Source: an uncultured Ruficoccus sp. (GTDB lineage: Bacteria; Verrucomicrobiota; Verrucomicrobiia; Opitutales; Cerasicoccaceae). Taken from it: a stretch of DNA of 64,000 nucleotides. Positions within the stretch are counted from its first letter, which is position 1; the number at the start of each line of letters is the position of its first letter. The notes below the pieces were generated by a model. That model searched no databases, had not been told where the DNA came from, and saw nothing but the letters and a program-made list of their open reading frames with translations. Shown here piece after piece: positions 1-15,369 of this stretch. The stretch is from NCBI GenBank assembly GCA_965140785.1, contig OZ223521.1, positions 64,001-128,000 on the forward strand, given 5' to 3'. A program made the position numbers and the translations under genes.

Positions 1-690
1 GTTGGAGCCGGAGACGCTGACCAGCGGCGCGGCCACATAGTCGGTGGTGTCGGTGACGGAGTTTTCCCCGACCAGTAGTGCCTGGTCGTCGCCACTGCCG
101 GGCAGGACGCTGGCCTGCGCGAGATTGACAGCGCTTGAGGGCGTGAACGACCAGCCGCCGGGCGCGTTGACGATGTGCCCGTCGTCGTCCACATCCGCCG
201 CCGGGTCAAAGGTGGTGCCCTCGTTCCCGCTGACGAGCCAGTTCAGCAGGACGGCTTGCGAGCCCTTGCCGTTGGAGTTGCCGGTGATGGCGGTGGCGAG
301 GGAGGACGGCGTCTGCCCGTAATCAATGGGCGCTGCGTTGCCATAGACGCCGAGCCAATGGCCGTTGGCGGTCGTGGTGTCGGCGAGGGTTTCGTCCATG
401 TTGGCCAGGGCGGTCACGCGCTGGTCCGGCCCGGCGTACTTCTGGAGCTGGCCGAGGGCGATGTTCAGGCCCGTGAGGGCGTTTTGCTGGGCCTGGAGCA
501 TGCGCTGGTTCGAGGTCGAGGCCTGAGTCTCGATCTGGGTCATGGCTGCGAGTGAATACAGTAACAGCACGATGAAGCCCATCAGCACGAGGGACATGAT
601 GAGAGCGAAGCCCTGGCGGGCCTGTGGGGTGCCCGCCAAGGCATGGGCGCGCTTACTGGCGCCCGTCTGTCTGTGGGAAAAGTTTTTCAT
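1..690 (-). CDS. Verru_Chthon cassette protein A-like / PilX-like large prepilin-type protein, copy 1 (runs off the window edge; N-terminal 230 aa visible)
   Basis: Not in the ORF track. Manual translation from ATG 690: MKNFSHRQ...ARQG|FALIMSLVLMGFIVLLLYSLAAMTQIET...NIALGQLQKYAGPDQRVTA...HWLGVYGN...WLVSGNE...DYVAAPLV. Colinear with the N-terminus of 11878..15369. Confidence 0.85.
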   Translation of the reverse strand, partial: MKNFSHRQTGASKRAHALAGTPQARQGFALIMSLVLMGFIVLLLYSLAAMTQIETQASTSNQRMLQAQQNALTGLNIALGQLQKYAGPDQRVTALANMDETLADTTTANGHWLGVYGNAAPIDYGQTPSSLATAITGNSNGKGSQAVLLNWLVSGNEGTTFDPAADVDDDGHIVNAPGGWSFTPSSAVNLAQASVLPGSGDDQALLVGENSVTDTTDYVAAPLVSVSGSN

Positions 691-2015
691 GGGGTAAGGT
701 CTGCCAAGGGTCGTTTGGGCCGTTGAGAAAGGCGACCGCGTCGATAAAGACACCGGCGGTCCAGCCCATCATGGCCGGCGGTTCGGCCTCAATGCTGGTT
801 TGCGCGGTGCCGTCTATGAAATTCTCGGGATTGATCAGGTAGCCCGCCTCAGCGGTGGTACGATGGGAGCCGTCGAGCGCGTTGTACTTCTCCCAGAGGT
901 CGCCGGTTTGGGCGTAGGTGCGGCAGACGCTGTTGACATATTTATCGGCGATCCGGCGGGCTTCTTTAAGGTAGCCGTAGCGCTCAAGTCCGCGGTAAAC
1001 GAGGTGCTGGATGCCGGGCCAGGCGTTCGTATGATCCCACTGGAAGGGGCTGGGCGGCTCGCTCGGGGCGACCGCGGAGACGCCCCGTCATATTCCAACA
1101 GCGGCAGGACATGGGCAACGACCCCGGCGGCCTGCTCTTCGCTGGCCAGTCCGGTCCACAGCGGCTGGAAAGCCGCGGCGGTGATCGCCGGGCTGTGGCG
1201 CTGGTGGAGGGTGTCGTAGTCGCAAAACACCGAGCGCTCCGCGTCCCAGCAAAAGGTGTTGATCCACTCGCGGCGGCGTTGCGCGCGGGCCAGCCAGCGG
1301 TCGCTCTCTGTGCCGTCGGTCCAGCGGGCCAGCAGGATTTCGTAGAGCCAGAGGTTGCTGTTGAGGTCCACCGGGCAAAAGTCCGGGCAGCGGCGGTCGT
1401 AGCGCGAAGTCAGGTCCCAGCCGGATTCGCATTCGGCCATGGTCCGCCCGGCCAGGTCGAGGTGGTCCTCGGGGCGGGCGTCGGGCTGGCCGAGCCGGTG
1501 CCGCACGGTCGGGAAAAACTGCATAAGCTCTTCGGCGGTGGCGTGGTGGCCATAGCGGGACAGGCCCGTCGGCGTCAGGCGGCGCGTCGTCCAAAACTCG
1601 TATTCCTGCGTTAGTAGCGGGACGGCATTCTGGCGAAGGGCTTTGTCTCCGAGCGCATGGTCGAGCAGCCCGACCATGGGGGCCAGGTAGGGCGGCTGCG
1701 AGCGGCACAGGTAGTAGGTGCGGTTGCCGTTGGGGACGAAGCCGTAGCGCTCGACCTGAGCCAGCAGGTTGCGCACATTACCCAGGCGAGCTTGTCCTCG
1801 CCGGTGCCTAGCAGTCCGAGCAACGTAAAATACGTGTCCCAGTAGTACAGCTCCTGAAACGCGCCCTTACGGCAGGGCACGGTGTAGGGGTGGGGCAGGG
1901 CGAGCAGGGTGCCGGCATCCCGTGGGCACGTGCGGACAGTCTCCTGCCAGTGTCCAGCGATGAAGCGCTGGATCGTGCCGACGAGTTCGGTGTCCGGTTG
2001 CGGGGCGGCGTTCAC
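653..2015 (-). CDS. Trehalase-like glycoside hydrolase (GH37 family), split by two single-base frameshifts
   Basis: Family motifs occur in order across three frames: FQELYYWDTYF; YGFVPNGNRTYYLCRSQPPYL; AECESGWDLTSR; PVDLNS; QWDHTNAWP; LWEKYN; MGWTAGV. Adding one base to the C runs at 1781-1783 and 1083-1086 restores a single ORF ending at TAA 653-655. Confidence 0.85.
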
Positions 2016-2022: not shown

Positions 2023-3455
2023 TCAGGGGGCAGGCGTCGGGCGGACGCACACGTTGTTGATAAATAAGTGCCGTTTCGTAGTGGGCTTGCTGGAGCCGAA
2101 GCTCACGCGGTCCACAAAGGGGACCTTGTTCAGCAGGGCTGCGTCGGTCAGGACCGGGGTGCCGTCGAGGGAAACGTCGGCCTGGTTTTGGGCCGGGTTG
2201 ACGGCGATTTCGATCCGGTGCCATTGGTTGGCAGCGGGGGCGGCCAGCACGGTTTCGCTGCCGTCGGCATGGCGATAGACGAGGTTGCCTTCGCCGTCGC
2301 TGAGGATGCTGACCGCCGGGGTGGTGCCATGGAGAAGCTCCATCCGATGGCCGGGGGTGGCCCCGGTCTCCATAAAATCCCAGCTCGCCGTGAACGGTTC
2401 GCTCTGCGGGACGAAGGTTTTCCACGCCCCGGTGGAGCCGGAGGGGTTGTCGTCCCAGAAGCGGATGCTCTTGTCCGTCGCGCCGGGGTTCTCGCGCACA
2501 GAGACGCTGCTGTTGGCGTCGGCCCGGCTTTCCCAGCCGGCGGGCTTGGGGCCGGTCGGCATGTCGTCAAAGGTTTCGCACAGGACCGTTTGCGCGGGGG
2601 CGGGGGAGAACTCGGGGCTGCCGTAGTGCCCGGGCTTGACGCGGTCAAAGCCGTCCGCGGGATTACCGATCTGATAGGCGATTTCGTCGTAAAAGATTTC
2701 GCGGCTTTCGCCCGGGGTGTACTTCCAGTGTTCCCAGCAGTAGGGACCCCCACTTGATGTAGCCGCCGACGGCCATCTGCTCGTCGCTGACCCAGCCGCC
2801 GTTGCCGAGGTTGATGTCGGTGTACTCGGCGGTCGGCTCCTCCTGCGGTGCGCCGTCGTACCAGGCGCGCAGGATGCCGGTGTGGTTGCGAGAGAACTTG
2901 CAGTAGAGGATGACGTCGTGCCAGGTGCCCTTGACCAGCTTGGGCGAAAGCGTTGTGTACACCGTGACTTCCTTGCCGCCGTCGCCGACGCCATAGGCGC
3001 CCTCCAGGATTACCGCGCCCGCGTGGTCCACGCCAACGGTGATGGTGATGTTCGTTTTAGGCAGGCTGTGGTCCCAGCAGATGATCTGGCCGAGCACCAT
3101 GCTCTTGTCCGGCACCGGGAAACTTTCCGGCGCGTAAAAGCTGAAGCCGTACCAGCCTTCGCCGGTGATGCGTTCGAGCTGAGTGGAGTTGCCCTCCACG
3201 CTGCGTCCGGAACGCCGGTCGTTGTAATTTTCCTCGTGCCAGACAATCCGGAAGAACCTTTTCGCCGGAGCGGGCGGGGAAGTCCGTCGGGGTGACGATC
3301 TCGGCCGTGTTGCCCGGAATCTTCTCCACCGTGAAGGGTGAGATGCTCCCGTCCTCAAAGTTTTCCGCGTGTGTTTGCGCGTACAGCGAACCGGCGGCGG
3401 GCAAGGCCGCGAGCAGGCCGATGAGTACGAAGGGATGGAGGCAATACTTAGTCAT
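2023..3455 (-). CDS. Secreted polysaccharide lyase-like protein (heparin lyase I / Polysacc_lyase jelly-roll) with a C-terminal lectin-like beta-sandwich; two frameshifts
   Basis: Signal peptide MTKYCLHPFVLIGLLAALPAAGSLYA. Motifs WYGFSFYAP, GTWHDVILYCKFS...GILRAWYDG and YIKWGPY...IFYDEI are spread over ORFs 3057..3458, 2663..3358 and 2023..2994. Frameshifts near 3250 and at the C run 2747-2751. Confidence 0.7.
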
Positions 3456-3519
3456 CAAAAGGGGGCGGGATTACGCCTATCAATAGGCACCAATGTCAGG
3501 GAAAAGACAAGTGGGCCTA

Positions 3520-3534
3520 TGCTCACACTGTTGA
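3520..3534. promoter_or_regulatory. Putative operator TGCTCACACTGTTGA upstream of the lyase/trehalase/PilX-like operon
   Basis: Exact 15-bp reverse complement of 3734..3748, within the divergent intergenic region. Confidence 0.6.
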
Positions 3535-3733
3535 TCCCCGGCTGGCCCTCGAATGGCTGATACGGACAAGATCGTCGGGCCTGCCCTTTTATTCTGTTAA
3601 ATCTCGGCTGAGCCCGTTCGGCGTCGCGCCCGGCGGCTACCGTGCAGGCATGGGAGACGGAACGCAGGCGGGAAGGGCAAGCCCAGCGATTCGAAGTCCG
3701 ACCGGCCTCGGCTGCTTGGACACCACCCTTGTG

Positions 3734-3748
3734 TCAACAGTGTGAGCA
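3734..3748. promoter_or_regulatory. Putative operator TCAACAGTGTGAGCA upstream of the TPR-ExbBD operon
   Basis: Exact reverse complement of 3520..3534. Resembles the near-palindromes at 21444 and 22612. Confidence 0.6.
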
Positions 3749-3894
3749 CGTGGCGGCTGGTTCTTTCGCCCAAGCGGGCGGATAATGTCGCCATTCGAAC
3801 AACCGTTCCCGCGACAAGACGGCCCCGTGCTTTTCGCGGTCCATGACCCCCACTTGTTTTATTGAACGTCACGCTTGTCAACCCTCACGGATCG

Positions 3895-6800
3895 ATGAAT
3901 CCCACCCGCAGCCACCCCCTCCCCCTCGCGCCGGGCCGCGTCTTACGGACACTGCTGCTGGCCGCCCTGCTCCTGCTGGCGGGCGGGCAAGCCGTGCGGG
4001 CGCAGGACAGTACGGATACCGTCGAGCGCATGCGCCGCGTGACCGAGTTGGTCGAGGCCAACAAGCTGGTGGAGGCCCGTCCTGACCTGCTCGTGCTGGT
4101 CAAGCAGGCCACGGATAAAGACCGTCCGAAGATGGTCTTCACCATCGCTCTTTCTTACGTGTACGAGTACTTTCAGGGCAGTGACGAGGCAGTCCTGAGC
4201 GAGGCCAAGGCGCAGTTCGAAAAATACCTGGCCGACTACCCGGACGACGAGTTGGTGCCCCTGGCCAAGTATAACCTGGCCGATATCTACGCGGCCGGGG
4301 GGGATTACGCCGGTGCCCTCAGCCTCTACCTCCCGCTTTACGACCATCCGCCCCAGCGGGTGGACCGGATGGAGATTTTACGCAAGATCACCCGTGTCTA
4401 TGTCGCGCAAAAGGACTGGGTGGGCGGCATGCCGTATTTCCGCGATACCATGCGGTTCAGTGCTGATGCGACCGAGCGGACCACGGCGGCGGCCTATCTG
4501 CTGATCGGGCAGGCCAAACAGGGAGACATTGGCAACGCCCGCGGCCTGCTGGAGTTTTTTAAGACGCCCGCGCCGGTCTTCTACACCTCGCGCTTCAATG
4601 CCGCCCTGATGGAGATCGGCGACCAGCTCTACGACGAGGGCCAGTTTGCCACCGCCGGACTCTTTTACCAGTTGGTCCGCTCCTACGAAACGCTGGAGGA
4701 GGGCTTGAGCCACTACATCGGGCAACTGGAGGCCCGGGCCGAGCGCCTCAAGGGCAGCATCGAGTACCGCAGCGAGTACATCGAGACCCGGGCCATGCTC
4801 GAAACCGCCCGGCTGGAGCTGGAGGCTCTGCGCAACTCGACCAACTACACCCCGCTGCTGAACTGGCGCATCGCCCGGCTCTACCTGAAACTGAACCGCG
4901 ACTGGGAGGCATACTGGCGCTTCCGCATCCTCGCGGACAAGTACCCCGACCATCCCCAGCACGAGAGCATCCTCTACGCTGCCTTTACCCTGGCCCGAAA
5001 GCTCGGTGAAAACGCAAGCGCGGCGGACTTGGCCCGGCAGTACTTTAAAAACAAGAGCTATCGGCAATTCCGGGGACCGGTGGTCAATGGCCTGGGCGAC
5101 ATCTACCGCGAGCAGGCGCAGTGGGACCTGTTCTTTGCGTTGACCGGCCAGTACCTCGCCGACAGCAACGTGGACCGCACGGCGGAGCAGCTCGTTTTCA
5201 AGCACGGCATCGCCCGGCTGGGGCGCTTGGAGAACCGCCAACTCATCCGCGACTTTGAGGCGCTGTCGGCTCAGTACGGCCAGAGTGCGCTGGCCGACGA
5301 GCTGCACTATTTCCTCGGGCTGGCCAGCTTGCTGGAGCAGGATTACGACCGCTCCATCGCGGAGTTCGAGGCGGTCATCGCCGACCCGAACTCCCCCTAC
5401 GGCAAGGATGCTTCCTTCCGCAAGGCCCTCGCGGTCATGGGGCAGGACCGTATGGAGGAGGCCCGCACCCTGCTCCGGGCCTTTGTTAAAAACTACCCCG
5501 ACAACCCGCTTCGCGCCGAGGCCGAGATCGCCCTCGGCGACATCGAAAACATGTTCGGTAACGCCGGGGGTGCGATCGTCCACTACCAGACCGCGAGCGA
5601 GCACACGGAGAACGTCGCCCTGCTGGCCAAGGTAGCGGAAAAGATCGCCAATATCCGCTGGCAACAGGGAGAAACCCAGGCGGCCATCGAGCACCTGGAG
5701 CGCTTTACCGCCGAGTATGCCGACTCCCCCGAGGTCATTCCCGCTGTGGCCGCGCTGGCGGCGTTTTATGAGGACTCCGGGGAGCCGCGCCAGGCGCTCG
5801 CCTGTATCCGCGCCACGGTCGAGCGCTTCGCCGATGAGCTTGGCATCCCCGCCCTGGGTGCGCTCCTGGCCAAGTACCTCGAACTCGATACGGAAATCCG
5901 CGTCATCAGCGAGCGCACCCGTGTCTCCTTGACGGAGTTGCGCGGTGACCCCGAACGGCTCGAAACGCTGATCAAGGACCGCGCTGCGCAGTACCGCTAT
6001 TTTAAGGAAAACCCGGCCATCGACCCTGTGGTGAAAACCAGCTTCGTGCAGGACAAGGCGTTCCGCAAGCAGGTGCTGGAGTCCCCGCTCGCGCTGGAGG
6101 AGCTGGCTGCCCGCATTCGCGAGCTGGACGCGCTCATTCCGCTCGAGACCGCCGTCGATGAGCTTCAGGCCTGGCTGGACGCGGCGACAGCCGACGGGAA
6201 CACCGTGCTCGCCGTGCGCTTCGAAGCCGCGCTGGCGCAACATGAGGACCCGCCCGCGATACCGTCGCCGGAGCGGATCGCCCTCCTCGATGATCCCGCA
6301 ATCTGGGCCGATCTCGACCCGCAGGCCAAGCTCTGGGTCCTCCGCGAGATCGCACGCGACACCCCCGAGCGCAGCGTGGCGGCGCTGGAGCTGATGCTGC
6401 CCGAGTATGCCAACACGGATGCCGAGCTGGACATTCACCTCCTGTTGGCGGATGTCTATGAGCGGCTCGGAGACCCGGAGAAGGCGCTCGAGCGTTATCA
6501 CTCGGTTGTCCAGCGCTTCTCCGGCAAGGACGTGGCCGGGACGTGCGCGTTGAAGGAGGGGCAGCTGCTCTTTGACCTGGATCGGTACGACGAAGCACGC
6601 CAAGTGCTCGAAGGCATTCTCGCGCGCTCCGAGTGGCGCGGCGAAAAACACGCGCAAGCTCTCTTGCTGCTGGGCGAGATTTACACCGCCCAAGGGCAGT
6701 ACGCCGAGGCGCACGGCTTTTACGAGCGCATCATCCTCGGCTACCCCTCCTTTTCGGAGGAGCTCGCCCTCGCGTTTTACAAGGACATCAAAGTCCTGGA

Positions 6801-6912
6801 GCTTTTAAACGAGACCGAAAGCGTCCGTACCGTGTACGAGGCCTTTCAGCAAACCCCCGGCCTGGAGGACACCCGCGGGGCCCGGATGATTCGCTCGGAG
6901 ATACAGCTATGA
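3895..6912 (+). CDS. Large exported tetratricopeptide repeat (TPR) protein
   Basis: ~1000-aa ORF with a signal peptide (LLLAALLLLAGGQAVRA|Q) and repeated helical TPR/BamD-like motifs (FEKYLADYPDD, FVKNYPDNPLRAEAEIALG, YERIILGYP). ATG 3895 preferred over TTG 3862. Confidence 0.85.
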   Translation: MNPTRSHPLPLAPGRVLRTLLLAALLLLAGGQAVRAQDSTDTVERMRRVTELVEANKLVEARPDLLVLVKQATDKDRPKMVFTIALSYVYEYFQGSDEAVLSEAKAQFEKYLADYPDDELVPLAKYNLADIYAAGGDYAGALSLYLPLYDHPPQRVDRMEILRKITRVYVAQKDWVGGMPYFRDTMRFSADATERTTAAAYLLIGQAKQGDIGNARGLLEFFKTPAPVFYTSRFNAALMEIGDQLYDEGQFATAGLFYQLVRSYETLEEGLSHYIGQLEARAERLKGSIEYRSEYIETRAMLETARLELEALRNSTNYTPLLNWRIARLYLKLNRDWEAYWRFRILADKYPDHPQHESILYAAFTLARKLGENASAADLARQYFKNKSYRQFRGPVVNGLGDIYREQAQWDLFFALTGQYLADSNVDRTAEQLVFKHGIARLGRLENRQLIRDFEALSAQYGQSALADELHYFLGLASLLEQDYDRSIAEFEAVIADPNSPYGKDASFRKALAVMGQDRMEEARTLLRAFVKNYPDNPLRAEAEIALGDIENMFGNAGGAIVHYQTASEHTENVALLAKVAEKIANIRWQQGETQAAIEHLERFTAEYADSPEVIPAVAALAAFYEDSGEPRQALACIRATVERFADELGIPALGALLAKYLELDTEIRVISERTRVSLTELRGDPERLETLIKDRAAQYRYFKENPAIDPVVKTSFVQDKAFRKQVLESPLALEELAARIRELDALIPLETAVDELQAWLDAATADGNTVLAVRFEAALAQHEDPPAIPSPERIALLDDPAIWADLDPQAKLWVLREIARDTPERSVAALELMLPEYANTDAELDIHLLLADVYERLGDPEKALERYHSVVQRFSGKDVAGTCALKEGQLLFDLDRYDEARQVLEGILARSEWRGEKHAQALLLLGEIYTAQGQYAEAHGFYERIILGYPSFSEELALAFYKDIKVLELLNETESVRTVYEAFQQTPGLEDTRGARMIRSEIQL

Positions 6913-8051
6913 ATGTGTGTATCCAAAATATCATGACAATTGGGCCCCGCGTTCTTGCCCGCTGGCGTGGCCTACTCGCTTGCCTTGCGCTTTCAGGACT
7001 GGTGCAGACTCCGTGTGGAGCGGGGCCGCTGGCGCCCGGCGTGACTTTGGCCGGCTCATTCCCGAGCGCGACCGGCGCCGAGCCTGTGCGGATGAAGGTG
7101 TACAATCAGGGCGCGTGGAAGGACTACAATATTCGCGCCTCGGAGGAGGGGATGGAAATCCTCATCGACGGTAACAGCGACGTGGCGATTTTTTACCCCT
7201 GGGAGGGGTTGGTCAGCATGCAGTTGAACTATGACCTGAGCGAGGAGCTGAGCGCCGCCCTCGCCACCACCGACCCGGACGCAAAGGCCCGCGCGCTGGC
7301 GCCGCTGGTCGAGCCGCTGTTCCCCTTCGCCCGGCTCCCCGAGACATCGACCAATGTTCACCACTACATCGAGGTTTACCTGGAGTCGCTGCTGGCCAGC
7401 GGTGAGATCGGCCCGGCCTTCACGGCGACCCGGACACTGCCGCTCAAGCAGCTCCCCCCGTTCGTCGCCACAAAGCTCTACGACCTGGTAGAGGCACTCT
7501 TTGCCGCCGGGGAGGAAGACAAAGCGCTCGACCTGTTGGCCCGCCTGCGCGCCAACCGCCCGGCGGAGGAATTCGCCGCCACTTCGCTGCGCCTGGCCAA
7601 GCAACTGGCCGACAAACGTCATTTCTCCGCGTCGCTGGGGCTCTACCGCACGCTCCTGCCGGTCGCTCCGCAGAGCGAACGCAAGGAGATCGCCCTGCGT
7701 TGTGCCTACCTCGCTCTGGAGGTGAACGACCTGTCCGCCTACGAGCTTTTCCGCGAGCTGGCACAGGAATTTCCCGGCGAGGACGAGGCGCTGGAGAGTG
7801 TCGCCGCTATCGTGGACGGCGTCCACGCCTATCAGGAGGAAGACACTCGCTCTGCGCTCAACGCGCTCGGCCACGGGCTGGCGACGATCCCGGCGGACAG
7901 CTCGTGGCGCGAGATTGCCTTTTACTACAACTGCCTCGCCTACCGCCAGCGGGGCGACGACGCCATTGCCGAGAGTATTCTTGAGGAGATGCCGCTGCTT
8001 TTCCCTGACGGGACCTACGTGGCTCACCTTCTCGACACGTCCACCCCCTGA
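6909..8051 (+). CDS. Exported alpha-helical (TPR-like) protein
   Basis: ATG 6909 overlaps the upstream stop (ATGA) and is in frame with ORF 6633..8051. Hydrophobic N-terminus; helical repeats ending EEMPLLFPDG. Confidence 0.7.
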   Translation: MNVCIQNIMTIGPRVLARWRGLLACLALSGLVQTPCGAGPLAPGVTLAGSFPSATGAEPVRMKVYNQGAWKDYNIRASEEGMEILIDGNSDVAIFYPWEGLVSMQLNYDLSEELSAALATTDPDAKARALAPLVEPLFPFARLPETSTNVHHYIEVYLESLLASGEIGPAFTATRTLPLKQLPPFVATKLYDLVEALFAAGEEDKALDLLARLRANRPAEEFAATSLRLAKQLADKRHFSASLGLYRTLLPVAPQSERKEIALRCAYLALEVNDLSAYELFRELAQEFPGEDEALESVAAIVDGVHAYQEEDTRSALNALGHGLATIPADSSWREIAFYYNCLAYRQRGDDAIAESILEEMPLLFPDGTYVAHLLDTSTP

Positions 8052-8102
8052 GCGGGCCGGATCCCTCAAAAAACAAACCCCATTACCCAACCACCGTCAG
8101 TT

Positions 8103-8870
8103 ATGAAAACATCATCCAACCCTATACCGTCCCTGCGCAAGCTCCTGTGGCTATGCCTGTTCGGCCTGGCCGCCAGTTGTGCCCTCGGGCAGACCGAGGC
8201 CCCCGCCGCCGAGGAGCCCGTCGTCGAAACGAGTGAAACCAGCTTCCTGCACATGATCGCGGCGGGCGGCTGGGCCATGTACCCGCTGGGCTTCCTCTCC
8301 GTGGCCGGTTTCGGCCTCGTGTGCTATAACTTCATGGCCCTGCGTAAAAAGGACTTCTTCGACGAGGCGTCGGCGGAGCGGCTGCGCGGGCACCTGAGCA
8401 CGGTCGATATCGATGCGGCGAAGGAAGACTGCGCCACCAACCCGAATCCGCTCATGCGCATCGTCAGCCACGGGCTCGACTCCATCCGCGGCGGCACCAT
8501 CGACCTGGAGCTCTTCCGCCAGCGGCTTGAGGCGGGCTCCAGCAAGGAGCTGGCCCAGCCCTTCGTGATCATCAACTACCTTTCGATCATCGCGTCGATT
8601 TCGCCCATGCTCGGCCTGCTCGGCACCGTCTCGGGGATGGTCAAGGCCTTTAACGCCATCGCCACCGTCGGCATGGGTCAGCCGGACCTGCTCGCCGGTA
8701 ACATCTCCGAGGCGCTGATCACGACCGCGACCGGGATGCTCATCGGGATCCCGACCATGTTCTTCTTCTTTTACTTCAAAAACCGCTACGGGAAGATCGT
8801 CGCGGACATGACGATGTACCTCGACGACATGTACGGCGAACTCGTCCACGGCACCCGCCAGATGTCCTGA
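8103..8870 (+). CDS. exbB: MotA/TolQ/ExbB proton channel family protein
   Basis: AGGWAMYPL; SIIASISPMLGLLGTVSGMVKAF; LAGNISEALITTATGMLIGIP. Confidence 0.93.
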   Translation: MKTSSNPIPSLRKLLWLCLFGLAASCALGQTEAPAAEEPVVETSETSFLHMIAAGGWAMYPLGFLSVAGFGLVCYNFMALRKKDFFDEASAERLRGHLSTVDIDAAKEDCATNPNPLMRIVSHGLDSIRGGTIDLELFRQRLEAGSSKELAQPFVIINYLSIIASISPMLGLLGTVSGMVKAFNAIATVGMGQPDLLAGNISEALITTATGMLIGIPTMFFFFYFKNRYGKIVADMTMYLDDMYGELVHGTRQMS

Positions 8871-8904
8871 GACGAACACCTGTAACCCTCACGCACGCGA
8901 GCTC

Positions 8905-9318
8905 ATGAGCATCCAAGGTTACAAACTCCCCGAGGACAGCGGAGGCTTCGACCTGACGCCGATGATCGACGTGGTGTTTCTGTTGATCGTGTTCTTCATG
9001 ACGGTGGCGAGCATGATTACGGAGAAAAAGGAGCTCAACCTCGCGGTGGCCGACGAGGCCGTCGTCCCCAAGGAAATCAGCGACCGCTTCATCTTCTCCA
9101 TCGACCCGGAGGGGAGCTTTTACGTGCAGAACCAGTTGATCGACGCGGACGAGGCGGCCCGCCGCCTGAAGCAGATCGCGGCCACACACCGGCACGCGAA
9201 ACTGGTCGTGCGCGTGGACCGCATGACCGAGCACCAGTATGTCAACCAGTTCCTGGGCATGTGCGCCGACAACGGCATCTCCGACATCATCTTCGCGACT
9301 TACCAGACCGACCTGTAG
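8905..9318 (+). CDS. exbD: ExbD/TolR family biopolymer transporter
   Basis: DLTPMIDVVFLLIVFFM signature with the conserved Asp. Confidence 0.92.
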   Translation: MSIQGYKLPEDSGGFDLTPMIDVVFLLIVFFMTVASMITEKKELNLAVADEAVVPKEISDRFIFSIDPEGSFYVQNQLIDADEAARRLKQIAATHRHAKLVVRVDRMTEHQYVNQFLGMCADNGISDIIFATYQTDL

Positions 9319-9327
9319 GGAGGCACC

Positions 9328-9762
9328 ATGAAGGCCAACGACATTTTTAACAGTATGGAAAAACCGGACCTGACGCCGATGATCGACGTCGTGTTCCTCC
9401 TGCTGGTCTTTTTCATGGTGACGACGCAGCTCGTCAAACAGGAAGCCGACTTGGGCATCCAGCTCCCCTCCAAGGCTGTTCCCAAGGCCGCACCGGAGCT
9501 GCCCTCCAAGCACATCATCGACATCATGCCAGATGGCTCCGTCATGATCAATGGCGGCCCCACCGGAGACGGCGTGACCGGCGAGTTGCCCGGCCTCACG
9601 CACATGCTGGCCGCCCTGAAGGCTTCCGCCGACCGCCTCGGCAAGAAAACCGTCGTCACCATCCAGGCCGACCCGTACTCGCCGCACTACCGCTCCGTCG
9701 ATGTGCTCAACGCCTGCGCTCACGCCCACCTCAGCTACGTTTCCTTCGGTCGGCTCGACTGA
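9328..9762 (+). CDS. exbD: ExbD/TolR family biopolymer transporter (second paralog)
   Basis: DLTPMIDVVFLLLVFFMV; TIQAD motif. Confidence 0.92.
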   Translation: MKANDIFNSMEKPDLTPMIDVVFLLLVFFMVTTQLVKQEADLGIQLPSKAVPKAAPELPSKHIIDIMPDGSVMINGGPTGDGVTGELPGLTHMLAALKASADRLGKKTVVTIQADPYSPHYRSVDVLNACAHAHLSYVSFGRLD

Positions 9763-9787
9763 CCCCGTCAACCCCCCCGCGCCAGCC

Positions 9788-10903
9788 ATGTCCCAGCCCC
9801 TCGACTCTTCCGAACTCGGCCACCCCTTTCGCAACAAAAGACGGCGCAAGGTGCTCTTGATCGTGGTCGTCGCCAGTGTCACCGTGCACGTGCTCGGCCT
9901 CCTTGTTTTCGGCGTGATCACGATCGTGGAAACGATCAGCAAGCCGCCCCCGGAGTTCGAGTCCGTGGTGGAAGTCGTGGAGGAGGCACCGCCCCCGCCG
10001 CCTCCGCCGCCCACGCAGCGCACGACCCAGCGCAGCATGCCCAGGCCGCAGCCGATGGCGGTCCAGAACGCGCTCAACCTGAGCATCCCCGCCATTGAGA
10101 TCGACACGGCAAACATGGTCATGGGACTGACCGGGCACGGCTCAGGCGGCGGCTTTGGCAGCATGGACAGCGGCGCGCTGGAATCGATCCGGCTGACGGC
10201 ATTCGGGTTCGACCAGTACATCGCGGGCACCCTGGAGGGGAATCTCTACGACCTTAAGCAGGCCCCGGACGGAAGCCCCATCGATCAGAGCAAGGACGAG
10301 GTCGTCGATATCCTCAAGCAGTTCACGCGCTCGTCGTGGTCCACCGCTTCCTTTGACAAGAAATACTTCCGCGCCGACAAATCGCTCTATTCGGCCTACT
10401 TCATCATCCCCTACATGGATGCGGCGATGGCGCCCGACGCGTTCGGGGCTGCCGACCAGATCGAGCCCAAAATGATTGCCGCGGTCTATCGGGGGACGTT
10501 CATCCCGCAGAAGTCCGGCAAGTTCCGCTTTTACGGACGCGGGGACGATGTGCTGGTGGTCCGGCTTAACAACCACATTGTGCTCGATGCCTCGTGGGAC
10601 CTTGGAAAGTACTCCGAGTGGAAGTCTTCCGCGCCCAAAGGCGAGAACGAAGGCAAGCCGCAGTTCGGCTTCCGCGAAGGCCATCCGGGCATCTACGGAG
10701 ACTGGTTTACGCTGCGCGAGGGGCAGGAGGTGAGCCTTGAAGTCCTTCTAAGTGAGGTGCCCGGCGGTCGTTTCGGCGCCTGGTTGCTGCTGGACGAAAA
10801 AGGCAGTGAAGAGAAGCCTACGATCTTTACCACCCGCCCGCTCAGTGACCAGGACCGCGAACACCTGAGCGGCATCCACCCCGACGCCCAGAAGTTTCTT
10901 TGA
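9788..10903 (+). CDS. TonB/TolA-like membrane-anchored proline-rich protein with a PA14-like C-terminal domain
   Basis: Basic N-terminus, then a TM helix with S-x3-H (ASVTVHVLG), then EEAPPPPPPPPTQ. C-terminal G-TFIP-KSGKFRFYGRGDDVLVVRLNNHIVLD is PA14-like. ATG 9788. Confidence 0.65.
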   Translation: MSQPLDSSELGHPFRNKRRRKVLLIVVVASVTVHVLGLLVFGVITIVETISKPPPEFESVVEVVEEAPPPPPPPPTQRTTQRSMPRPQPMAVQNALNLSIPAIEIDTANMVMGLTGHGSGGGFGSMDSGALESIRLTAFGFDQYIAGTLEGNLYDLKQAPDGSPIDQSKDEVVDILKQFTRSSWSTASFDKKYFRADKSLYSAYFIIPYMDAAMAPDAFGAADQIEPKMIAAVYRGTFIPQKSGKFRFYGRGDDVLVVRLNNHIVLDASWDLGKYSEWKSSAPKGENEGKPQFGFREGHPGIYGDWFTLREGQEVSLEVLLSEVPGGRFGAWLLLDEKGSEEKPTIFTTRPLSDQDREHLSGIHPDAQKFL

Positions 10904-11188
10904 GCCGGTGTCTCTCTCGCGACGACTAATAGATGGTGATGCTGGGGTTGCAAGCGAGAGCCCCTTCGGAGGAATTTACGCAGTTCGGAGACCCTTACCG
11001 TTTTCGGGTTGGGACTCGAGGTTTCTGGCGAAAAAAGGGTGATATGATTGATTAAGGCCAGCTTTTCTACGATCCTCCAAGATGCTTTCAATCCGTATGA
11101 TTGTGCTGCTGATTGAAAAGATGAAGGGTGCATGGACAGAATAAATCAAAGGCACTTGGTGTGGCGATTATATCAGCAATGACAGCGA

Positions 11189-11902
11189 TCAAGGTCCCGG
11201 CGCTGGCTCCATCACATTGCGTATGCTCAGTCCCTTGGGGTTCGGAAACTCGATGGACGCCTCTTCGTCGATGATGACAATTGTCGAACGCATGTCTGAC
11301 AGCGTGACCAGCGGCTTGCTGACAGATAGTTTCCACTCGCCGTCCTTTTCCGATGCGACCTGCAGCCAAGTCTGGTTCTGGCCGGAATAGCGGTAGAGCG
11401 CGGATTGCCGCGGGACGATTTCGAGAACCTCATTCCCGACTTTTGCGGCGATGGGCTGACGGGTAAAATTAAAAACTCTCATTGTTCCTATCGGATGCTC
11501 CGTCCAGTTATCGGAAACCGCCCACACCTCTACGGGGCGGGATGAGATGGTCGTTTCCTTCAGAAAGATGAGATAGGGGCCCTTGTCGGGCAGACCGACT
11601 TTAGCCAACGGCAATTGTTTCGGTGCGCTGTCCACGCCATTTTCGGCGGGAACAAGGCGGTAGAAGGTAACGGGTTGCCCCGCTACGAGAGGATACGATT
11701 TGGACAAGGCAGAAACGCCGACCGTAAGCTCGACCGGCTCACCGAGATGATCATAGTACAGATTTTTCAGCCCCCCGCCCAGAGACAGTGCGCGAAAAGC
11801 GGACAGTTCCTTTGGCTGCCCATGCGCGACGAGACAGGATAGAGACAGGCAGGCGCATGCCCACCCAAGACTGATACTCAAATTTCGCTGGAAGAAAGCC
11901 AT
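11189..11902 (-). CDS. Exported beta-rich hypothetical protein coupled to the PilX-like gene
   Basis: ATG 11902 (MAFFQRN...CLVAHG signal-like) overlaps the 3' end of 11878..15369. Contains MRVFNFTRQPIAAKVG. Confidence 0.65.
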   Translation of the reverse strand: MAFFQRNLSISLGWACACLSLSCLVAHGQPKELSAFRALSLGGGLKNLYYDHLGEPVELTVGVSALSKSYPLVAGQPVTFYRLVPAENGVDSAPKQLPLAKVGLPDKGPYLIFLKETTISSRPVEVWAVSDNWTEHPIGTMRVFNFTRQPIAAKVGNEVLEIVPRQSALYRYSGQNQTWLQVASEKDGEWKLSVSKPLVTLSDMRSTIVIIDEEASIEFPNPKGLSIRNVMEPAPGP

Positions 11903-14900
11903 TTGAAAGCAACAATTTTGAATTTCCGGCCAAACGCCCGGTTGATCGCGTTCAGGTCCTCGGGCAGATCGTCGGGCTCGTTTGCAGGGTCGAGATAATC
12001 GACCTGACGCTGCACAACCGCTTCGCACCAGGCCCGCGCTATCGTCACGCCGCTAAGGGGGTCCATCACTTCTCCGAAACAGCGAATACGGAACGTATCG
12101 GAGCGCGCGCTCAAGTTCGCGCCAATTGCGGAGAGGACATCCGCCTGGGTGAGATACTGAGGTGCAAAGGCGGAAAGGGAACCAGCCGCATTGTCAGCCG
12201 AATCCGGCCCCGCGTAGCCGCGCATCAGCTCAAGGTCGGAATCGTTCCCTGCGTAGTGGGGCATCGGGTCGCAATGGAAGGGATTGCTGATGGCGTTTCC
12301 AAACGCATTCGCCGATCCGTCATTCACGGCGGCCGAACCGCTGTGGGTGGAGTCGATGGCGGCTTGGATCGTCCCTTTGAAGCGCTCATCTTGCGCCGTC
12401 TGGGGATTGTCCACGAGGCGGCGGTTGATGAAGTCGCCCAAGGACACAAACGGGCCGCGGGCGCGGATCTCCGTCACGATGTTTGCGGCCAGTTGAGCGA
12501 TCTGTTCTTCACTTAATTGACGGAACCCCTGCCAGGCCCAGGCCTGGGTGTCGTCCACGGGAGGATTTTGGGTTGGTTTGCTGAATCGGGACAGGGCGGA
12601 CTGAAGGGAGGTCCCCGATGCAGCCCCAGTAACCGGGTTATAGGACAGTTGATTGCATCCGCCCAGGACCGCGCGCCAGGCTTGTTCAGAGGTCGAGTTG
12701 ACGTTGAATCCTCCGCGCAGCGCGAGCCCAGCCGCCGCCCTGTTCGCATCGCGCAAGACTTCGTCGTCAGCGTTCGCATTCTTCTCCAGGCGGGGATTGG
12801 GCAGGGGGGTGGGGATGGGGCTGCCGTTCGTATCGGTCGTCGTTCCGGTGCCTTGATGTGGGATGGTGGAAACGAAGTAATGATCCCACAGCGCCCGATT
12901 GAGCAGCCAGGAGACATCGTAGTAGTAGCCGATCTGATTCGATGGGTCCGAGCCCAGGGCCAGTTGCTTCGCCAAGTCACCCCGTCGGTTGAGGAAATGG
13001 AAGTCGCCCAGACTATTCCCAATCGGATAGGCCGGATAATCGTTGAGCCTTGATAAGTTCGCATGCTGAAGCTGGCCCAGGCTCAGTAGCGGCTGGTCGG
13101 AGGGGCGAAATTCAAACAGCGTGGCATTCACGATGCCACCGGACGAATCCAGGCCCGTTCCGCTGGAGGCTCGGAGCCCACTGGTTTCCGCATTGAAATC
13201 AGGATCCCGATGGTCCATCCCGCCGCGGGCAGTGAGGTTAGAGGGGCTGTGGTTGGTGTTGATACGTGTGGCGTAAAGGGCCCGGGGATTGCCTTGCGCA
13301 AGCCAGCGCACATCCGGGTAGTCATCCGAGTTCATGCCCTTGGAGAAATTCCTCTGGATCATGATCGCCGACGTGGGTCCGGTCACGAAACTTAACTGCG
13401 CGGGCATTTGGAGAAACTCGTTGCGAAGCTTGCCACCCACAGAGACCAGATTCGTGCCGCCGTCCTGGGCAGGCGTGGCCTGTGAAACTGCCTGATACCA
13501 GTGCTTGTCGTTATCGTCGCTGGTTATGTACCCGCGGCGAACATAATCGGCGACCTCGCCCAGATAAGCGTAAAGCTCGCCGCCCGACATGTTCGGCTCG
13601 GTCAATGGCGGCAGCCAATAAGCAGGACTGACCCGGAAGAAGTTGTCGGACTCCCCGGCGCCGATCACCGTCTGGTTCACACCGAAGTCCAGCAGGACAT
13701 GCCCATACGCGTTCAGGCCGTGGGTCAAAACATTCTGCGGCTCGCCGTCCTCGGGCGCACGATAGCTGACCCCGCTTTCGGCCCCCTGCAAGCTGAAGAT
13801 CAGACTCGCTCCCGGCGGAATGATCGGGGAGTCCACGATGAAGCGCACATAACTGTCACTTTTTCCATCTCCGTACTGATGAGCCCCCCGGGAGAAATCG
13901 ACCGTCTCCTTGGCGGACCACTGGCCGGTGTCATCCTGGACCTGCAACTGAAAACCGCCGCGATAGCGCTGCATGATCCCCACCTCATAGCGGTTCGCGG
14001 TAAGGGGAACCGTGTAGGGATTCCAGAGGATGACCACCGGAAACATGGCCAGCCGGATCGGGGCGCCGTCATAGGCCCCATGCGGGGCCGCATACTGCAG
14101 GCCAAGATAAAGGCAAGTCATGACCGGAGCGATGCCGGTATCCGTCGAGGTAGGCAGACGGGGACTCAGGCTGCCCGCCGGCGCGGTCGTCCGCGCGAAT
14201 GCCCGCAGCGCCCCCCAGGTCGGAACGCCGAAACGGTCACGGTCCGTGGTGCCCTCAGGTTCGAATAACGTCTCCGTGTCAAGCGGGTGGGTCGAGCCGG
14301 TGGCCAGGATCGCGGAAAGATCTTGTTTGAGCCCGCCGGCATAGGTATCCGAAAGCACAGAATAGGAACTGGCGGTCAAGTCATGGAAACGCCATTTGAG
14401 TGTCTCCCGCATGGCCGCGCCATCATCCGCCAGTATCGACATGGCGCTCAAATGGGACACCTCATCGAGAGCGCCGATTTGAGGATCATAATTCGCCCCG
14501 ATCAACCCGCCTGGAGAAAAGGCGTTTGTCGCTCCCCGGTTGACCAGTTCCACCGCATTACGGCGGGCCAGGACGAAAGCCTCGGGAAGCTCTCCGGTCG
14601 GAGCCATCGGGAGGGTGACGTTCGCCTTGGCCCCTTCGTCACCGATCCACCAGGCGTAGCGTCCCACGAAGCCATCCTGCCCGTCGCCCGGGATCGCCAC
14701 CAGCGGCGCCGCCACGTAGTCGATGGCTGATGCGGCGGAATGCTCCGCCACCAGCAGCACCTGGCTATCGTCCGCGGCTGGTTGGACGGACGCCTGTGCG
14801 AGATCAACCGGGCTGGTCGGAGTGAAACGCCAACCGTGGGGCGCGTTGCGGATGTGCCCGTCGTTGTCCACATCGTCGGCTGGAGTGAAGGAGACGTCCT

Positions 14901-15369
14901 CATTTCCGCTGACCAGCCAGGTGAGGAGGACCGCCTGCGAGCCCCTGGCATCCGAATGGGCGGTCACGTCTCCGGCCAGGGAAACTGGGGTCTGGCCGTA
15001 GTCGACCGGGGCGCCATTGCCGTACACCCCGATCCAGTGTCCGTTCGCGCTGGTGCTATCCACCAGGGCCGGGTCCATGTCCGCCCGCGCTGTGGTTCGC
15101 TGATCGGGGCCGGCGTATTTTTGTAATTGCCCGAGGGCGATATTCAAGGCCATGAGCGCGTTCTGGCGGGCCGTCACGGTTTGCGTGCTGGTTGAGAACA
15201 CCCGGGTCTCAATCTGGGTCATGCTGGACAGCGTCAGCAACAGGGTCAGAAGAAAAGCCATCAGGACGATGGCTATGACCAGTGCGAAGCCCCCCCGGCT
15301 GCGTATGCGGAGGGAATCTGCATGCACCGCCGGAGCAGCGGATGGGCGGGAGTCATTGAGGGGTATCAT
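11878..15369 (-). CDS. Verru_Chthon cassette protein A-like / PilX-like large prepilin-type protein, copy 2 (complete, 1163 aa)
   Basis: RGG|FALVIAIVLM class III-like signal with no E5. Motifs: LGQLQKYAGPDQR, YAWWIGDEGAKA, GGLKQDLS, LSLGQLQHA, FNVNSTSEQAWRA, RGPFVSLGDFINRRL, SARSDTFRIR, FGRKFKIVAFKWL. Confidence 0.85.
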   Translation of the reverse strand: MIPLNDSRPSAAPAVHADSLRIRSRGGFALVIAIVLMAFLLTLLLTLSSMTQIETRVFSTSTQTVTARQNALMALNIALGQLQKYAGPDQRTTARADMDPALVDSTSANGHWIGVYGNGAPVDYGQTPVSLAGDVTAHSDARGSQAVLLTWLVSGNEDVSFTPADDVDNDGHIRNAPHGWRFTPTSPVDLAQASVQPAADDSQVLLVAEHSAASAIDYVAAPLVAIPGDGQDGFVGRYAWWIGDEGAKANVTLPMAPTGELPEAFVLARRNAVELVNRGATNAFSPGGLIGANYDPQIGALDEVSHLSAMSILADDGAAMRETLKWRFHDLTASSYSVLSDTYAGGLKQDLSAILATGSTHPLDTETLFEPEGTTDRDRFGVPTWGALRAFARTTAPAGSLSPRLPTSTDTGIAPVMTCLYLGLQYAAPHGAYDGAPIRLAMFPVVILWNPYTVPLTANRYEVGIMQRYRGGFQLQVQDDTGQWSAKETVDFSRGAHQYGDGKSDSYVRFIVDSPIIPPGASLIFSLQGAESGVSYRAPEDGEPQNVLTHGLNAYGHVLLDFGVNQTVIGAGESDNFFRVSPAYWLPPLTEPNMSGGELYAYLGEVADYVRRGYITSDDNDKHWYQAVSQATPAQDGGTNLVSVGGKLRNEFLQMPAQLSFVTGPTSAIMIQRNFSKGMNSDDYPDVRWLAQGNPRALYATRINTNHSPSNLTARGGMDHRDPDFNAETSGLRASSGTGLDSSGGIVNATLFEFRPSDQPLLSLGQLQHANLSRLNDYPAYPIGNSLGDFHFLNRRGDLAKQLALGSDPSNQIGYYYDVSWLLNRALWDHYFVSTIPHQGTGTTTDTNGSPIPTPLPNPRLEKNANADDEVLRDANRAAAGLALRGGFNVNSTSEQAWRAVLGGCNQLSYNPVTGAASGTSLQSALSRFSKPTQNPPVDDTQAWAWQGFRQLSEEQIAQLAANIVTEIRARGPFVSLGDFINRRLVDNPQTAQDERFKGTIQAAIDSTHSGSAAVNDGSANAFGNAISNPFHCDPMPHYAGNDSDLELMRGYAGPDSADNAAGSLSAFAPQYLTQADVLSAIGANLSARSDTFRIRCFGEVMDPLSGVTIARAWCEAVVQRQVDYLDPANEPDDLPEDLNAINRAFGRKFKIVAFKWLSSSEI

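Follow-up and report, generated by a model that had tools for sequence, protein, structure and literature searches.

A sugar-degradation (CAZyme) island in an Opitutales (Verrucomicrobiota) genome contains a six-gene motor operon lying between two sugar-enzyme operons, each of which carries a giant pilin-like gene at its distal end. Does this arrangement encode a single machine for glycan uptake, as an earlier note on the DNA had proposed, with motor and pilins together standing in for SusC/D? We pursued the question in the 64,000-nucleotide stretch of DNA under analysis (the window) and in the assembly it belongs to (4.36 Mb, 91% complete, median contig GC 61%). Gene content, folds, motifs, paralogy, distribution and genomic linkage could all be established. 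With moderate confidence, we favor a reading in which the island holds two separable modules, an accessory motor cassette and the giant pseudopilins, both of them candidates for glycan capture without SusC/D.

The motor operon occupies positions 3862–10903 of the plus strand, with gaps of 2 to 52 nt between the ORF calls. Its first gene, TPR1 (3862–6912), encodes an exported protein of about 1000 residues with a signal peptide read from the sequence, matches to many TPR families (e.g., PF13432, E = 1e-22) and YbgF-type repeats (TIGR02795); its orthologues in loci L046, L047, L048 and L066 are 42–47% identical. TPR2 (6915–8051), an exported protein of about 378 residues, matches TPR_19 and TPR_6 weakly and is kept between TPR1 and ExbB in orthologous loci. 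The ExbB/TolQ-type proton channel subunit (8103–8870; PF01618, E = 7e-27) is 71–74% identical to those of L046 and L047 and 70% identical to that of L066. Two ExbD/TolR-type subunits follow (8905–9318 and 9328–9762; PF02472, E = 1e-19 and 8e-21). They are unlike one another, at 36% identity, and the membrane aspartate of the second, D20, is invariant in 19 orthologues. Pfam and the ORF calls thus bear out the order TPR, TPR, ExbB, ExbD, ExbD, followed by a sixth protein, that had been read from the sequence.

The sixth gene (9788–10903, plus strand) encodes a 371-residue candidate force transducer with a TonB-like helix containing S30-x3-H34, a proline-rich linker and a PA14-fold head. The S-x3-H pattern, which we take to be the helix motif of TonB, is invariant or nearly so across PA14-type, Opitutales core-type and Verrucomicrobiales-type transducers. 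The head lies at about residues 134–371 and has a conserved DD motif, a pair that presumably sits where PA14 lectins hold calcium. In an alignment of 31 transducers, D253 is invariant, and H34 and D254 are each conserved in at least 90%. The predicted model has a pLDDT of 82, rising above 90 in the head. Foldseek searches with this model gave PA14 sugar-binding domains as the best matches (E = 3e-7), an assignment made from a prediction and with moderate TM-scores (0.59 normalized to the target); 57 PDB chains matched at E ≤ 0.001, and nearly all of the top ranks were PA14 or PA14-containing proteins. No Pfam family, PA14 (PF07691) included, matched the transducer even at E ≤ 10, so that its original description as "TonB/PA14" holds by fold and fails by Pfam. 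PA14 domains are not always lectins.

A second copy of the cassette in the same genome (C10:18437–24590) has a vWA-type head. Homology between the window transducer and the vWA-type (core) transducers covers the N-terminal 110 residues only (probability 98.9), and none to vWA-type heads was found beyond residue 124. Core-type and Verrucomicrobiales-type transducers are full-length homologues (E = 2e-45), and 10 of 23 of them give weak VWA matches. The predicted structure thus points to a head swap, in which a PA14 lectin fold replaces the usual vWA domain on this copy of the cassette. Together with the helix motif, it upholds the view that the sixth protein combines a TonB-like anchor and a PA14 lectin-fold head. 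The PA14 transducer is patchily distributed: beyond this genome, a full-length version is encoded by 7 of 15 genomes in the family and by 0 of 4 in the genus. The closely orthologous locus L066 has no transducer gene adjoining its motor genes.

The cassette itself occurs across Verrucomicrobiota and Kiritimatiellota. Of 20 phylum loci, 18 keep the gene order and one more is truncated where its contig stops; among 35 named loci the order is kept in 22, including ones from Opitutales, Akkermansia-labeled MAGs and Kiritimatiellales. Housekeeping genes surround the core copy at C10 and most copies in the phylum, and they are the neighbors in six core-type loci; core copies are flanked by LptF/G, Lgt, ABC-F and folate genes. 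A tree of ExbB plus ExbD, read without support values, places the window copy together with L046, L047 and L066, whose neighbors are GH, sulfatase, esterase or sugar-transporter genes. By these sequence comparisons, the window operon is an accessory paralogue of this widespread cassette. Conserved linkage to CAZyme or sulfatase genes, for which a neighborhood survey had been suggested, thus applies to the window copy, L046, L047 and L066 but not to the basic cassette, which is found mostly among housekeeping genes.

Both flanking enzyme operons are encoded on the minus strand. The left one begins with an exported polysaccharide lyase with a C-terminal extension (2023–3458; PF14099, E = 1e-14), followed by a trehalase-like glycoside hydrolase (835–2015; PF01204, E = 7e-46). 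As assembled, the lyase is split into three frames, and an intact paralogue (C48:111232–112179) aligns with it in all three; run contigs lack one base at 2747, in a G5 run (X1 and X2), and one at 3255 (X1). The hydrolase is split into two frames, and the X2 run contigs carry an additional base at each of 1082 and 1784, the positions of the frame breaks. The apparent frameshifts in both genes are assembly errors. Upstream of its giant, the right operon encodes a GH130 enzyme (15552–16535), a heparinase II/III-like protein, a TIM-barrel protein and an SSF transporter read in two frames (15552–21227 in all; PF04041, PF07940, PF01261, the last a weak match, and PF00474). A LacI-family regulator (21418–22479, plus strand; PF00356 and PF13377) is divergent from this operon.

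A perfect 15-bp inverted pair, TGCTCACACTGTTGA, lies upstream of the lyase and motor operons, at 3520–3534 (plus) and 3734–3748 (minus). The first arm reads TCAACAGTGTGAGCA on the lyase sense strand, 62–76 nt 5′ of the lyase start codon. The second reads TCAACAGTGTGAGCA on the TPR1 sense strand, 114–128 nt 5′ of the TTG at 3862 or 147–161 nt 5′ of the alternative start ATG at 3895, so the element precedes both divergent operons in the same orientation. No further copy was found in the window, where 0.15 would be expected by chance with up to 2 mismatches allowed, or in the 4.36-Mb genome. The pair described in the earlier note is therefore real and unique in the genome. The element is not conserved in orthologous loci, and a search for a promoter-like site beside it found none. 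Its placement suggests that it probably co-regulates the motor and lyase operons.

Turning to the pilin-like genes, giant no. 1 enters the window with its N-terminal 251 residues (1–753, minus strand); the full gene (C50:61121–64660, locus L147) encodes about 1211 residues and is followed by a partner gene. Giant no. 2 (11878–15369, minus strand; 1163 residues) is the penultimate gene of the right operon and is 57–59% identical to giant no. 1. Downstream of it lies an exported partner of about 237 residues with a signal peptide (11189–11902, minus strand), which has no Pfam or NCBIfam family. Both giants have a prepilin-like N-terminus without E5 (G followed by FALIMSLVLMGF in no. 1 and by FALVIAIVLMAF in no. 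2). Read as G|FALVI, this type of N-terminus has Ile at +5, and the model has a long N-terminal helix at residues 28–86. The predicted model of giant no. 2 (pLDDT 86, pTM 0.87) was compared with known structures by alignment (VIA-align). It matches GspK (3ci0_K; Z 11.7, rmsd 3.4 over 247/280) and XcpX (5vtm_X; Z 11.4, rmsd 3.3 over 227/259), the match spanning residues 56–1163. On this modeling, the giants are minor pseudopilins of the GspK fold into which about 800 residues are inserted, and the name "PilX-like" given to them before is corrected accordingly to a GspK/XcpX fold. Profiles did not recover this relationship: neither PF03934 nor PF21687 (T2SSK) matched at E ≤ 10, and NF037980 gave E = 0.083 and 12 bits against a cut-off of 130.

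The giant family has 17 dispersed copies in the genome, and a homologue of the partner lies directly downstream of 14 of the 15 full-length ones. A sugar context surrounds 12 of 13 giant loci and 3 of 10 random loci (Fisher p = 0.003), a comparison with a small control of 10 windows and with giant loci that, coming from one genome, are not independent. That the giants are of the tip type, without E5, and enriched in sugar loci thus agrees with what had been claimed for them. Homologues are widespread, with 4463 cluster representatives at E ≤ 1e-3 and matches in 29 of 101 sampled genomes of the phylum (1–24 each).

If either module captures glycans, how do receptors figure in this genome? Profile scans of 16 picked ORFs (1–20.7 kb) and of 24 of the 39 ORFs of at least 200 residues between 15 and 64 kb (the rest overlap longer ORFs) found no TonB-dependent receptor or SusD in the window, as the first reading of the sequence had stated. 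Genome-wide, the search found receptors on contigs C46 and C9 only, with 2 receptor barrels. The C46 receptor has its own ExbB-ExbB-ExbD-ExbD-TonB set. C9 holds the single SusC/SusD-like pair of the assembly, and because its GC content is 39%, against the median of 61%, this contig is probably foreign.

We infer from the features above sugar binding, force transduction, uptake, co-regulation and a fibre-tip location, which would combine as follows. The motor would consist of the two exported TPR proteins, a pentamer-type ExbB channel, two ExbD subunits and the TonB-like transducer. Using the proton-motive force, it would pull the proline-rich arm, whose PA14 tip may bind a glycan or a glycan-carrying outer-membrane partner. 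Polymer fragments would thereby be retained or pulled into the periplasm for the neighboring lyase and hydrolases to act on. The giants, for their part, may act as caps, each specific to its locus, on a common type II or type IV-like fibre whose genes lie elsewhere in the genome; pseudopilin operons occur on C18 and C22.

How far do the two modules belong together? In the window they adjoin, and each of the 3 PA14-head genes in this genome has a giant no more than 7 kb away; about 6.7% of the genome is that close to one (p = 3e-4 if independent). In Akkermansia, moreover, mucin uptake depends on pili genes as well as on a periplasmic complex, according to the available account. These points would suit a single apparatus in which the giants, as substrate-specific pilus tips, feed the TPR-ExbBD-PA14 machine and replace SusC/D. 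However, a survey of 55 other cassette loci (20 phylum and 35 named) found no giant or partner homologue closer than about 10 kb, 14 of the 17 giants are far from both TPR-TPR-ExbB-ExbD-ExbD cassettes of the genome, and enrichment of both families in CAZyme islands can by itself explain their proximity. We therefore consider the single apparatus unlikely, and the original proposal to that effect is not supported by the wider survey. Less likely still is that the cassette, the window copy included, is a Tol-like envelope-maintenance system or outer-membrane tether whose position among CAZymes is incidental. The best profiles do lean that way (YbgF/CpoB for the TPR1 repeats, TolQ for ExbB, TolR for ExbD), the cassette is widely conserved, its core copies have the housekeeping flanks described above, and a search of the 91%-complete genome for TolB_N found none. 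Yet the TolQ and TolR scores fall far below the curated cut-offs, a core copy is already present in this genome, members of the accessory clade have a lectin-fold head and lie in sugar loci in all 4 genomes with known flanks (counting the window), and the upstream element is common to the motor and lyase operons. The cassette family as a whole may have an envelope-maintenance role, because the ancestral cassette sits among housekeeping genes and no TolB was found; the accessory copy could share it.

For the giants, the main competitor is that each tailors a type II secretion pseudopilus for exporting or displaying the enzymes encoded in its own operon. They fold like GspK/XcpX, which caps this pseudopilus, and the genome encodes 5 secretins as well as 4 GspE/PilB-type ATPases. 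For an Opitutales isolate, 67 PulG-like pseudopilins are reported; a pseudopilin was over-expressed on alginate, and the authors suggest a role in alginase export (PMC13274419). Against this, the insertion of about 800 residues and the dedicated exported partner are atypical of secretion caps, the next best structural match is ComZ, a large uptake tip pilin (Z 8.2), and no gspH/I/J-type genes adjoin the giants among the flanking ORFs of at least 200 residues that were scanned. Secretion is thus a real but doubtful possibility, and we regard substrate capture as somewhat more likely. Two separable modules, each a candidate for glycan capture, remain our preferred account of the island.

Compared with known systems, the motor shares with Ton the ExbB and ExbD families, the proline-rich periplasmic arm and the S-x3-H helix. 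It differs in that the transducer lacks the TonB C-terminal domain (PF03544/PF13103; no Pfam match at E ≤ 10), TonB_C matches in the genome being limited to C46, C14 and C36, and in that the window contains no cognate receptor, while the native-looking receptor on C46 has a TonB set of its own. Unlike a SusC/SusD locus, the window has no adjacent SusC-like receptor or SusD-like lipoprotein, and unlike Tol-Pal, the motor operon lacks TolA, TolB and Pal.

The giants share a fold and a prepilin-like N-terminus without E5 with the tips GspK-GspI-GspJ (3CI0) and XcpVWX (5VTM), but they are four times larger, do not adjoin gspI/J/H and occur as 17 dispersed copies with an exported partner. By features, the ESM Atlas cluster nearest to the giant (0.98) is TIGR02600, "Verru_Chthon cassette protein A", a family for which we found no publication in the literature. 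The N-terminal 60 residues of the giants match it in 13 genome loci, with scores of 15–39 bits (25.9 for giant no. 2, over 59 residues), none of which passes the cut-off of 332; cassette partners B and C do not adjoin the giants. Thermus thermophilus ComZ (6QVI), likewise a large pilin of the tip type into which a big domain is inserted, is the third-best match (116 residues aligned), but this match is near the level common by chance for the method, its insertion differs, and it is a single-copy protein of DNA uptake.

The PA14 domains that best match the transducer head (E = 3e-7 to 1e-4) are those of the Marinomonas ice-binding RTX adhesin (6M8M/6XA5), Candida Epa and yeast Flo. Identity to them is only 12–17%, and they belong to secreted adhesins, whereas the putative lectin head of the window sits on an inner-membrane TonB-like anchor.

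Another relative is the mucin utilization locus MUL1 of Akkermansia muciniphila, reportedly described by Davey et al. in 2023, with mul1A being amuc_0544 and the locus taken here as Amuc_0543–0550. It, too, is verrucomicrobial, and it serves glycan (mucin) uptake in an organism that lacks SusC/D. The available account states that mul genes are required for mucin uptake and that their expression is constitutive; the link to Akkermansia drawn in the earlier note points the right way. Amuc_0546, two genes from mul1A, is called a biopolymer transporter, a label that fits ExbD, and the cassette, with a vWA-type transducer, also occurs on contigs labeled Akkermansia or Akkermansiaceae. By analogy, the cassette is probably of the MUL1 type; the window copy differs in its PA14 head and comes from another taxonomic order. 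A 2026 paper reports MUL1 synteny as absent from aquatic Akkermansiaceae.

The closest published relative is a cassette of PVC bacteria with TPR, tolQ-like, two tolR-like and SHLS-helix vWA transducer genes, described in 2025 in a paper that reports no function or phenotype for it (PMC12204202). This cassette and ours have the same gene order and families, two unlike ExbD/TolR subunits and a TonB-like S-x3-H helix, and the second copy in our genome and the Verrucomicrobiales copies carry its vWA-type head. The window copy differs in being an accessory paralogue in CAZyme islands, with an extra TPR gene and PA14 instead of vWA. The motor type, with its vWA-headed transducers, is thus already published; what sets the window copy apart from it is the PA14 lectin-fold head.

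The six-gene operon described in the earlier note is present on the plus strand at 3862-10903. It encodes two TPR proteins (TPR1, 3862-6912; TPR2, 6915-8051), ExbB (8103-8870), two ExbD proteins (8905-9318 and 9328-9762) and a 371-aa TonB-like transducer (9788-10903), with intergenic gaps of 2-52 nt. The two flanking minus-strand operons, directed away from this cassette, each terminate as claimed in a giant protein whose N-terminus resembles that of a prepilin but lacks Glu5 (1-753, N-terminus only, and 11878-15369). The 15-bp inverted pair is likewise perfect and lies upstream of both the lyase and the motor operons. A search of the whole genome found it only at 3520-3534 and 3734-3748, where both divergent operons show the same word, TCAACAGTGTGAGCA, when read in their sense direction, 62-76 nt upstream of the lyase start and 114-128 nt upstream of the TPR1 ORF start. 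By simple arithmetic, about 7e-5 perfect 15-bp inverted matches are expected by chance in a 400-bp spacer. The 15-mer is not conserved upstream of orthologous cassettes, and we found no sigma-70-like promoter or terminator-like site at 3400-3950, including beside the pair; the region 10800-11300 contains one weak promoter-like site and no detectable terminator. In two orthologous loci (964/1193 in L066 and 2765/3113 in L048), the stretch preceding TPR1 contains a 10-bp inverted pair that differs in sequence from this one; the arms are 230-350 bp apart, and each pair is only mildly unlikely by chance.

The window (C50:64001-128000) belongs to a 4.36 Mb assembly of 50 contigs that is 91% complete, and its nearest named relatives in alignment-based scans are Opitutales: Opitutaceae and Coraliomargaritaceae MAGs, Coraliomargarita and Thalassobacterium. 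It is rich in CAZymes (GH2, GH30, CBM9, GH39, GH3, GH43, rhamnosidase, GH130, a heparinase-like protein and a lyase) and additionally encodes regulators of the LacI, AraC and GntR types as well as a sugar ABC system. In the deposited sequence, the lyase (2023-3458) spans three frames and the neighboring GH (835-2015) spans two. Compared with contigs from two public sequencing runs, the window shows single-base differences at 1082 and 1784 (run X2), 2747 (X1 and X2, within a G5 run) and 3255 (X1). Because these indels coincide exactly with the frame breaks, both enzymes are most likely intact in the organism and the apparent frameshifts are most likely assembly errors. An SSF transporter at 19367-21227 is similarly split between frames. 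Elsewhere in the island, a PFL-like glycyl-radical enzyme and its radical-SAM activase (24115-26988) may process a sugar-derived product. Two exported proteins for which we found no Pfam family (22835-23683 and 38845-39660) end in a PEP-CTERM-like sorting signal, in which IPE precedes a hydrophobic segment and then basic residues.

The transducer matches no family in Pfam or NCBIfam, and only 23 relatives, every one unnamed, were recovered among 5.8 billion clustered proteins. As the sole query in a search for related loci it returned no match, and relatives were then sought by a family-level genome search and an alignment-based scan. A structural model built from a 31-row alignment has a mean pLDDT of 82, rising above 90 in the head (residues 134-371, approximately). 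When this model was compared with known structures using Foldseek, PA14 sugar-binding domains ranked first, which bears out the TonB/PA14 label given to the protein earlier. The top match among 57 chains at E <= 0.001 is a Marinomonas RTX adhesin (E 3e-7, TM 0.59 to target), and the Candida Epa and yeast Flo adhesins are also among the leading matches. Within the alignment D253 never varies and the conservation of D254 is at least 90%; this DD pair corresponds to the calcium site of PA14 lectins.

A second cassette in the same genome (C10:18437-24590) shares 26% identity with the window copy in TPR1, 44% in ExbB and 55% in ExbD2. It groups with a core type of cassette, found among housekeeping genes and headed by vWA-like transducers; weak VWA matches were detected in 10 of 23 core Opitutales and Verrucomicrobiales transducers. 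By profile comparison, the window transducer is homologous to its core Opitutales counterparts in the N-terminal 110 residues only (probability 98.9), whereas the homology between core Opitutales and Verrucomicrobiales transducers extends from end to end (E 2e-45). In a FastTree phylogeny of concatenated ExbB, ExbD1 and ExbD2, read without support values, the window copy clusters with the orthologous loci L046, L047 and L066. Their sister group comprises L049, L067 and L068, and these two clades are jointly sister to the core Opitutales clade that includes the C10 copy. One close orthologue, L047, encodes tandem transducers (11390-13656), the first with a vWA-like head and the second with a PA14-like head. 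The accessory copy is patchy in its distribution: 7 of the 15 other genomes from the family encode a full-length PA14 transducer, and none of the four others from the genus does. The source genome has two further PA14 heads: an orphan TonB-like transducer of 416 aa (C50:135394-136515) stands without motor genes, and a head-only secreted PA14-like protein of about 265 aa (C17:2092-2679) lies 2 kb from a giant (C17:4670-8149). The head-only form is also found in two congeners (L011 and L012).

The cassette itself is widespread. Of 151 sampled genomes from the phylum, 40 encode TPR1-like proteins (E <= 1e-10), and the order TPR1-(TPR2)-ExbB-ExbD1-ExbD2 is complete in 18 of the 20 loci around such matches; one of the remaining two is truncated by a contig end and the other has no motor. 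A search with an ExbD2 profile gave 35 named loci, 22 of which hold TPR1, ExbB and both ExbD genes, a count that excludes Rubritalea since its TPR gene lies downstream and was missed by tblastn with the window TPR1. Most loci have a sixth gene after the motor, encoding a membrane helix with an invariant Ser-x3-His. Contigs bearing the cassette include some labeled Akkermansia sp., Akkermansiaceae, Rubritalea, Pontiella and Tichowtungia. A scan with an Akkermansia-labeled TPR protein matched MAG contigs only and not the type strain. The cassette was published in 2025, and the accessible portion of that paper (PMC12204202) gives it no known function. We conclude that the window cassette is a head-swapped, glycan-island variant of this published system, which suggests that the system comes in head-swapped versions.

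The proposed linkage between the cassette and CAZyme genes holds for one branch of the family. Around the window copy and its three close orthologues with flanking sequence, the neighbors include GH, sulfatase, esterase or sugar-transporter genes, but core-type loci sit among housekeeping genes for LptF/G, Lgt, ABC-F, folate and NAD kinase functions. We also considered whether the cassette is a conventional energy-transducing system. The source genome contains eight ExbB and 11 ExbD loci, and the only native-looking TonB-dependent receptor adjoins a separate TonB2-type set (C46:54000-68000) made up of DUF3450, a long ExbB, a second ExbB, two ExbD proteins, TonB_C and a TPR protein. A second receptor and the only SusD-like gene form a SusC/SusD-like pair on the 44-kb contig C9, which has a GC content of 0.39 compared with a median of 0.61 and is probably foreign or a contaminant. 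A canonical Ton system was set aside because Pfam detects no TonB C-terminal domain on the transducer (E <= 10) and no cognate receptor was found among the window ORFs scanned. Tol-Pal was also set aside, since TolA, TolB and Pal are not encoded with the cassette; a search of the 91% complete genome for TolB_N found no match.

A model of the 1163-aa giant at 11878-15369 (40-row alignment) reached a pLDDT of 86 and a pTM of 0.87. Foldseek found no PDB match to the whole model at E <= 0.001, and a profile of 40 giants found none among PDB sequences at E <= 10. VIA-align, run against 48,161 chains, ranked GspK first (3ci0_K; Z 11.7, rmsd 3.4, 247/280), followed by XcpX (5vtm_X, Z 11.4) and ComZ (Z 8.2). 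The aligned range of the giant extends from residue 56 to residue 1163, so that an insertion of roughly 800 residues splits the GspK fold. The proteins called PilX-like earlier thus have the fold of GspK/XcpX. No Pfam family matches the giant, and NF037980 scores below its cut-off (E 0.08). Membership in TIGR02600 was rejected, as the match (26 bits) is under the cut-off and confined to the N-terminus. The nearest ESM Atlas cluster is annotated "Verru_Chthon cassette protein A."

The giants form a family that counts 4463 cluster representatives at E <= 1e-3 and still 2235 at 1e-30. Of 101 sampled genomes from the phylum, 29 carry members, with 1-24 matches each and the most in larger genomes. 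In the source genome, tblastn located 17 loci, 15 of them full-length, and an exported partner of 190-270 aa directly follows 14 of these 15. We scored a locus as having sugar context when a CAZyme, a sulfatase, a sugar transporter or a LacI/AraC regulator lay no more than 8 kb away. By this measure 12 of 13 giant loci qualified, compared with 3 of 10 random loci chosen 20 kb or more from the nearest giant (one-sided Fisher p 0.003); the sample is small, and loci drawn from a single genome are not independent. The scan of flanking ORFs of at least 200 aa beside the giants revealed no small pseudopilin; pseudopilin operons are present on C18 and C22, and the genome encodes five secretins and four GspE/PilB-type ATPases. 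A third giant (1277 aa) and its partner end an operon of TPR, solute-binding protein, ABC permease and BNR_4 genes (window 54520-64000; C50:125307-136515), with the orphan 416-aa PA14 transducer about 6 kb beyond. The giants are a very large, unnamed family of GspK-fold pseudopilins tied to individual sugar operons.

Do the giants and the motor form one apparatus, as the earlier note proposed? All three PA14-head genes of the source genome (the window gene, C50:135394-136515 and C17:2092-2679) lie within 7 kb of a giant; regions this close to a giant make up about 6.7% of the genome. A common location in CAZyme islands can account for the proximity, and we therefore treat it as a lead. Against a single apparatus, no homologue of a giant or its partner is present within about 10 kb in the 20 and 35 cassette loci of other genomes. 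The earlier interpretation is partly supported: its components hold, namely the motor, the PA14 head, the GspK-type giants and their ties to sugar loci, whereas the evidence does not support a single machine.

The functions of the cassette and the giants are inferred. In a broader scheme, which we consider rather unlikely, Opitutales and their kin would rely on a modular, proton-powered route, made up of swappable arms, shared motors and giant caps, to take in polysaccharides without SusC/D. Interchangeable TonB-like arms with PA14 or vWA heads, some supplied by orphan genes in sugar loci, would plug into shared ExbB-ExbD motors on a TPR scaffold, and giant GspK-type caps particular to each locus, together with exported partners, would place substrate-specific binding modules at the tip of a retractable fiber. 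Two parts can be tested from this locus: a motor paralogue with a lectin-type head that travels with CAZyme genes, and the family of giant GspK-fold pseudopilins tied to sugar operons. The route by which large glycans enter Verrucomicrobiota and other PVC bacteria in the absence of SusC/D is a recognized gap in knowledge, and these groups are relevant to marine carbon turnover and gut mucin foraging. In recent papers, uptake mechanisms are called understudied in aquatic Akkermansiaceae, and those for cellular uptake of fucoidan by marine bacteria are called unexplored.

A possible counterpart of the cassette is the mucin utilization locus MUL1 of Akkermansia muciniphila. According to other papers, mul1A is amuc_0544, Amuc_0546 is called a "biopolymer transporter," and the MUL genes, which are constitutive, specify pili and a periplasmic complex required for mucin uptake. 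MUL1 synteny is also reported to be absent from aquatic Akkermansiaceae. If MUL1 is the cassette described here, that statement would need revisiting because the cassette occurs across the phylum, and MUL1 would be no gut-specific invention. Were the modular route outlined above correct, it would account for the "selfish" uptake of glycans by Verrucomicrobiota, and MUL1/MUL2 of Akkermansia would be one reduced instance of it.
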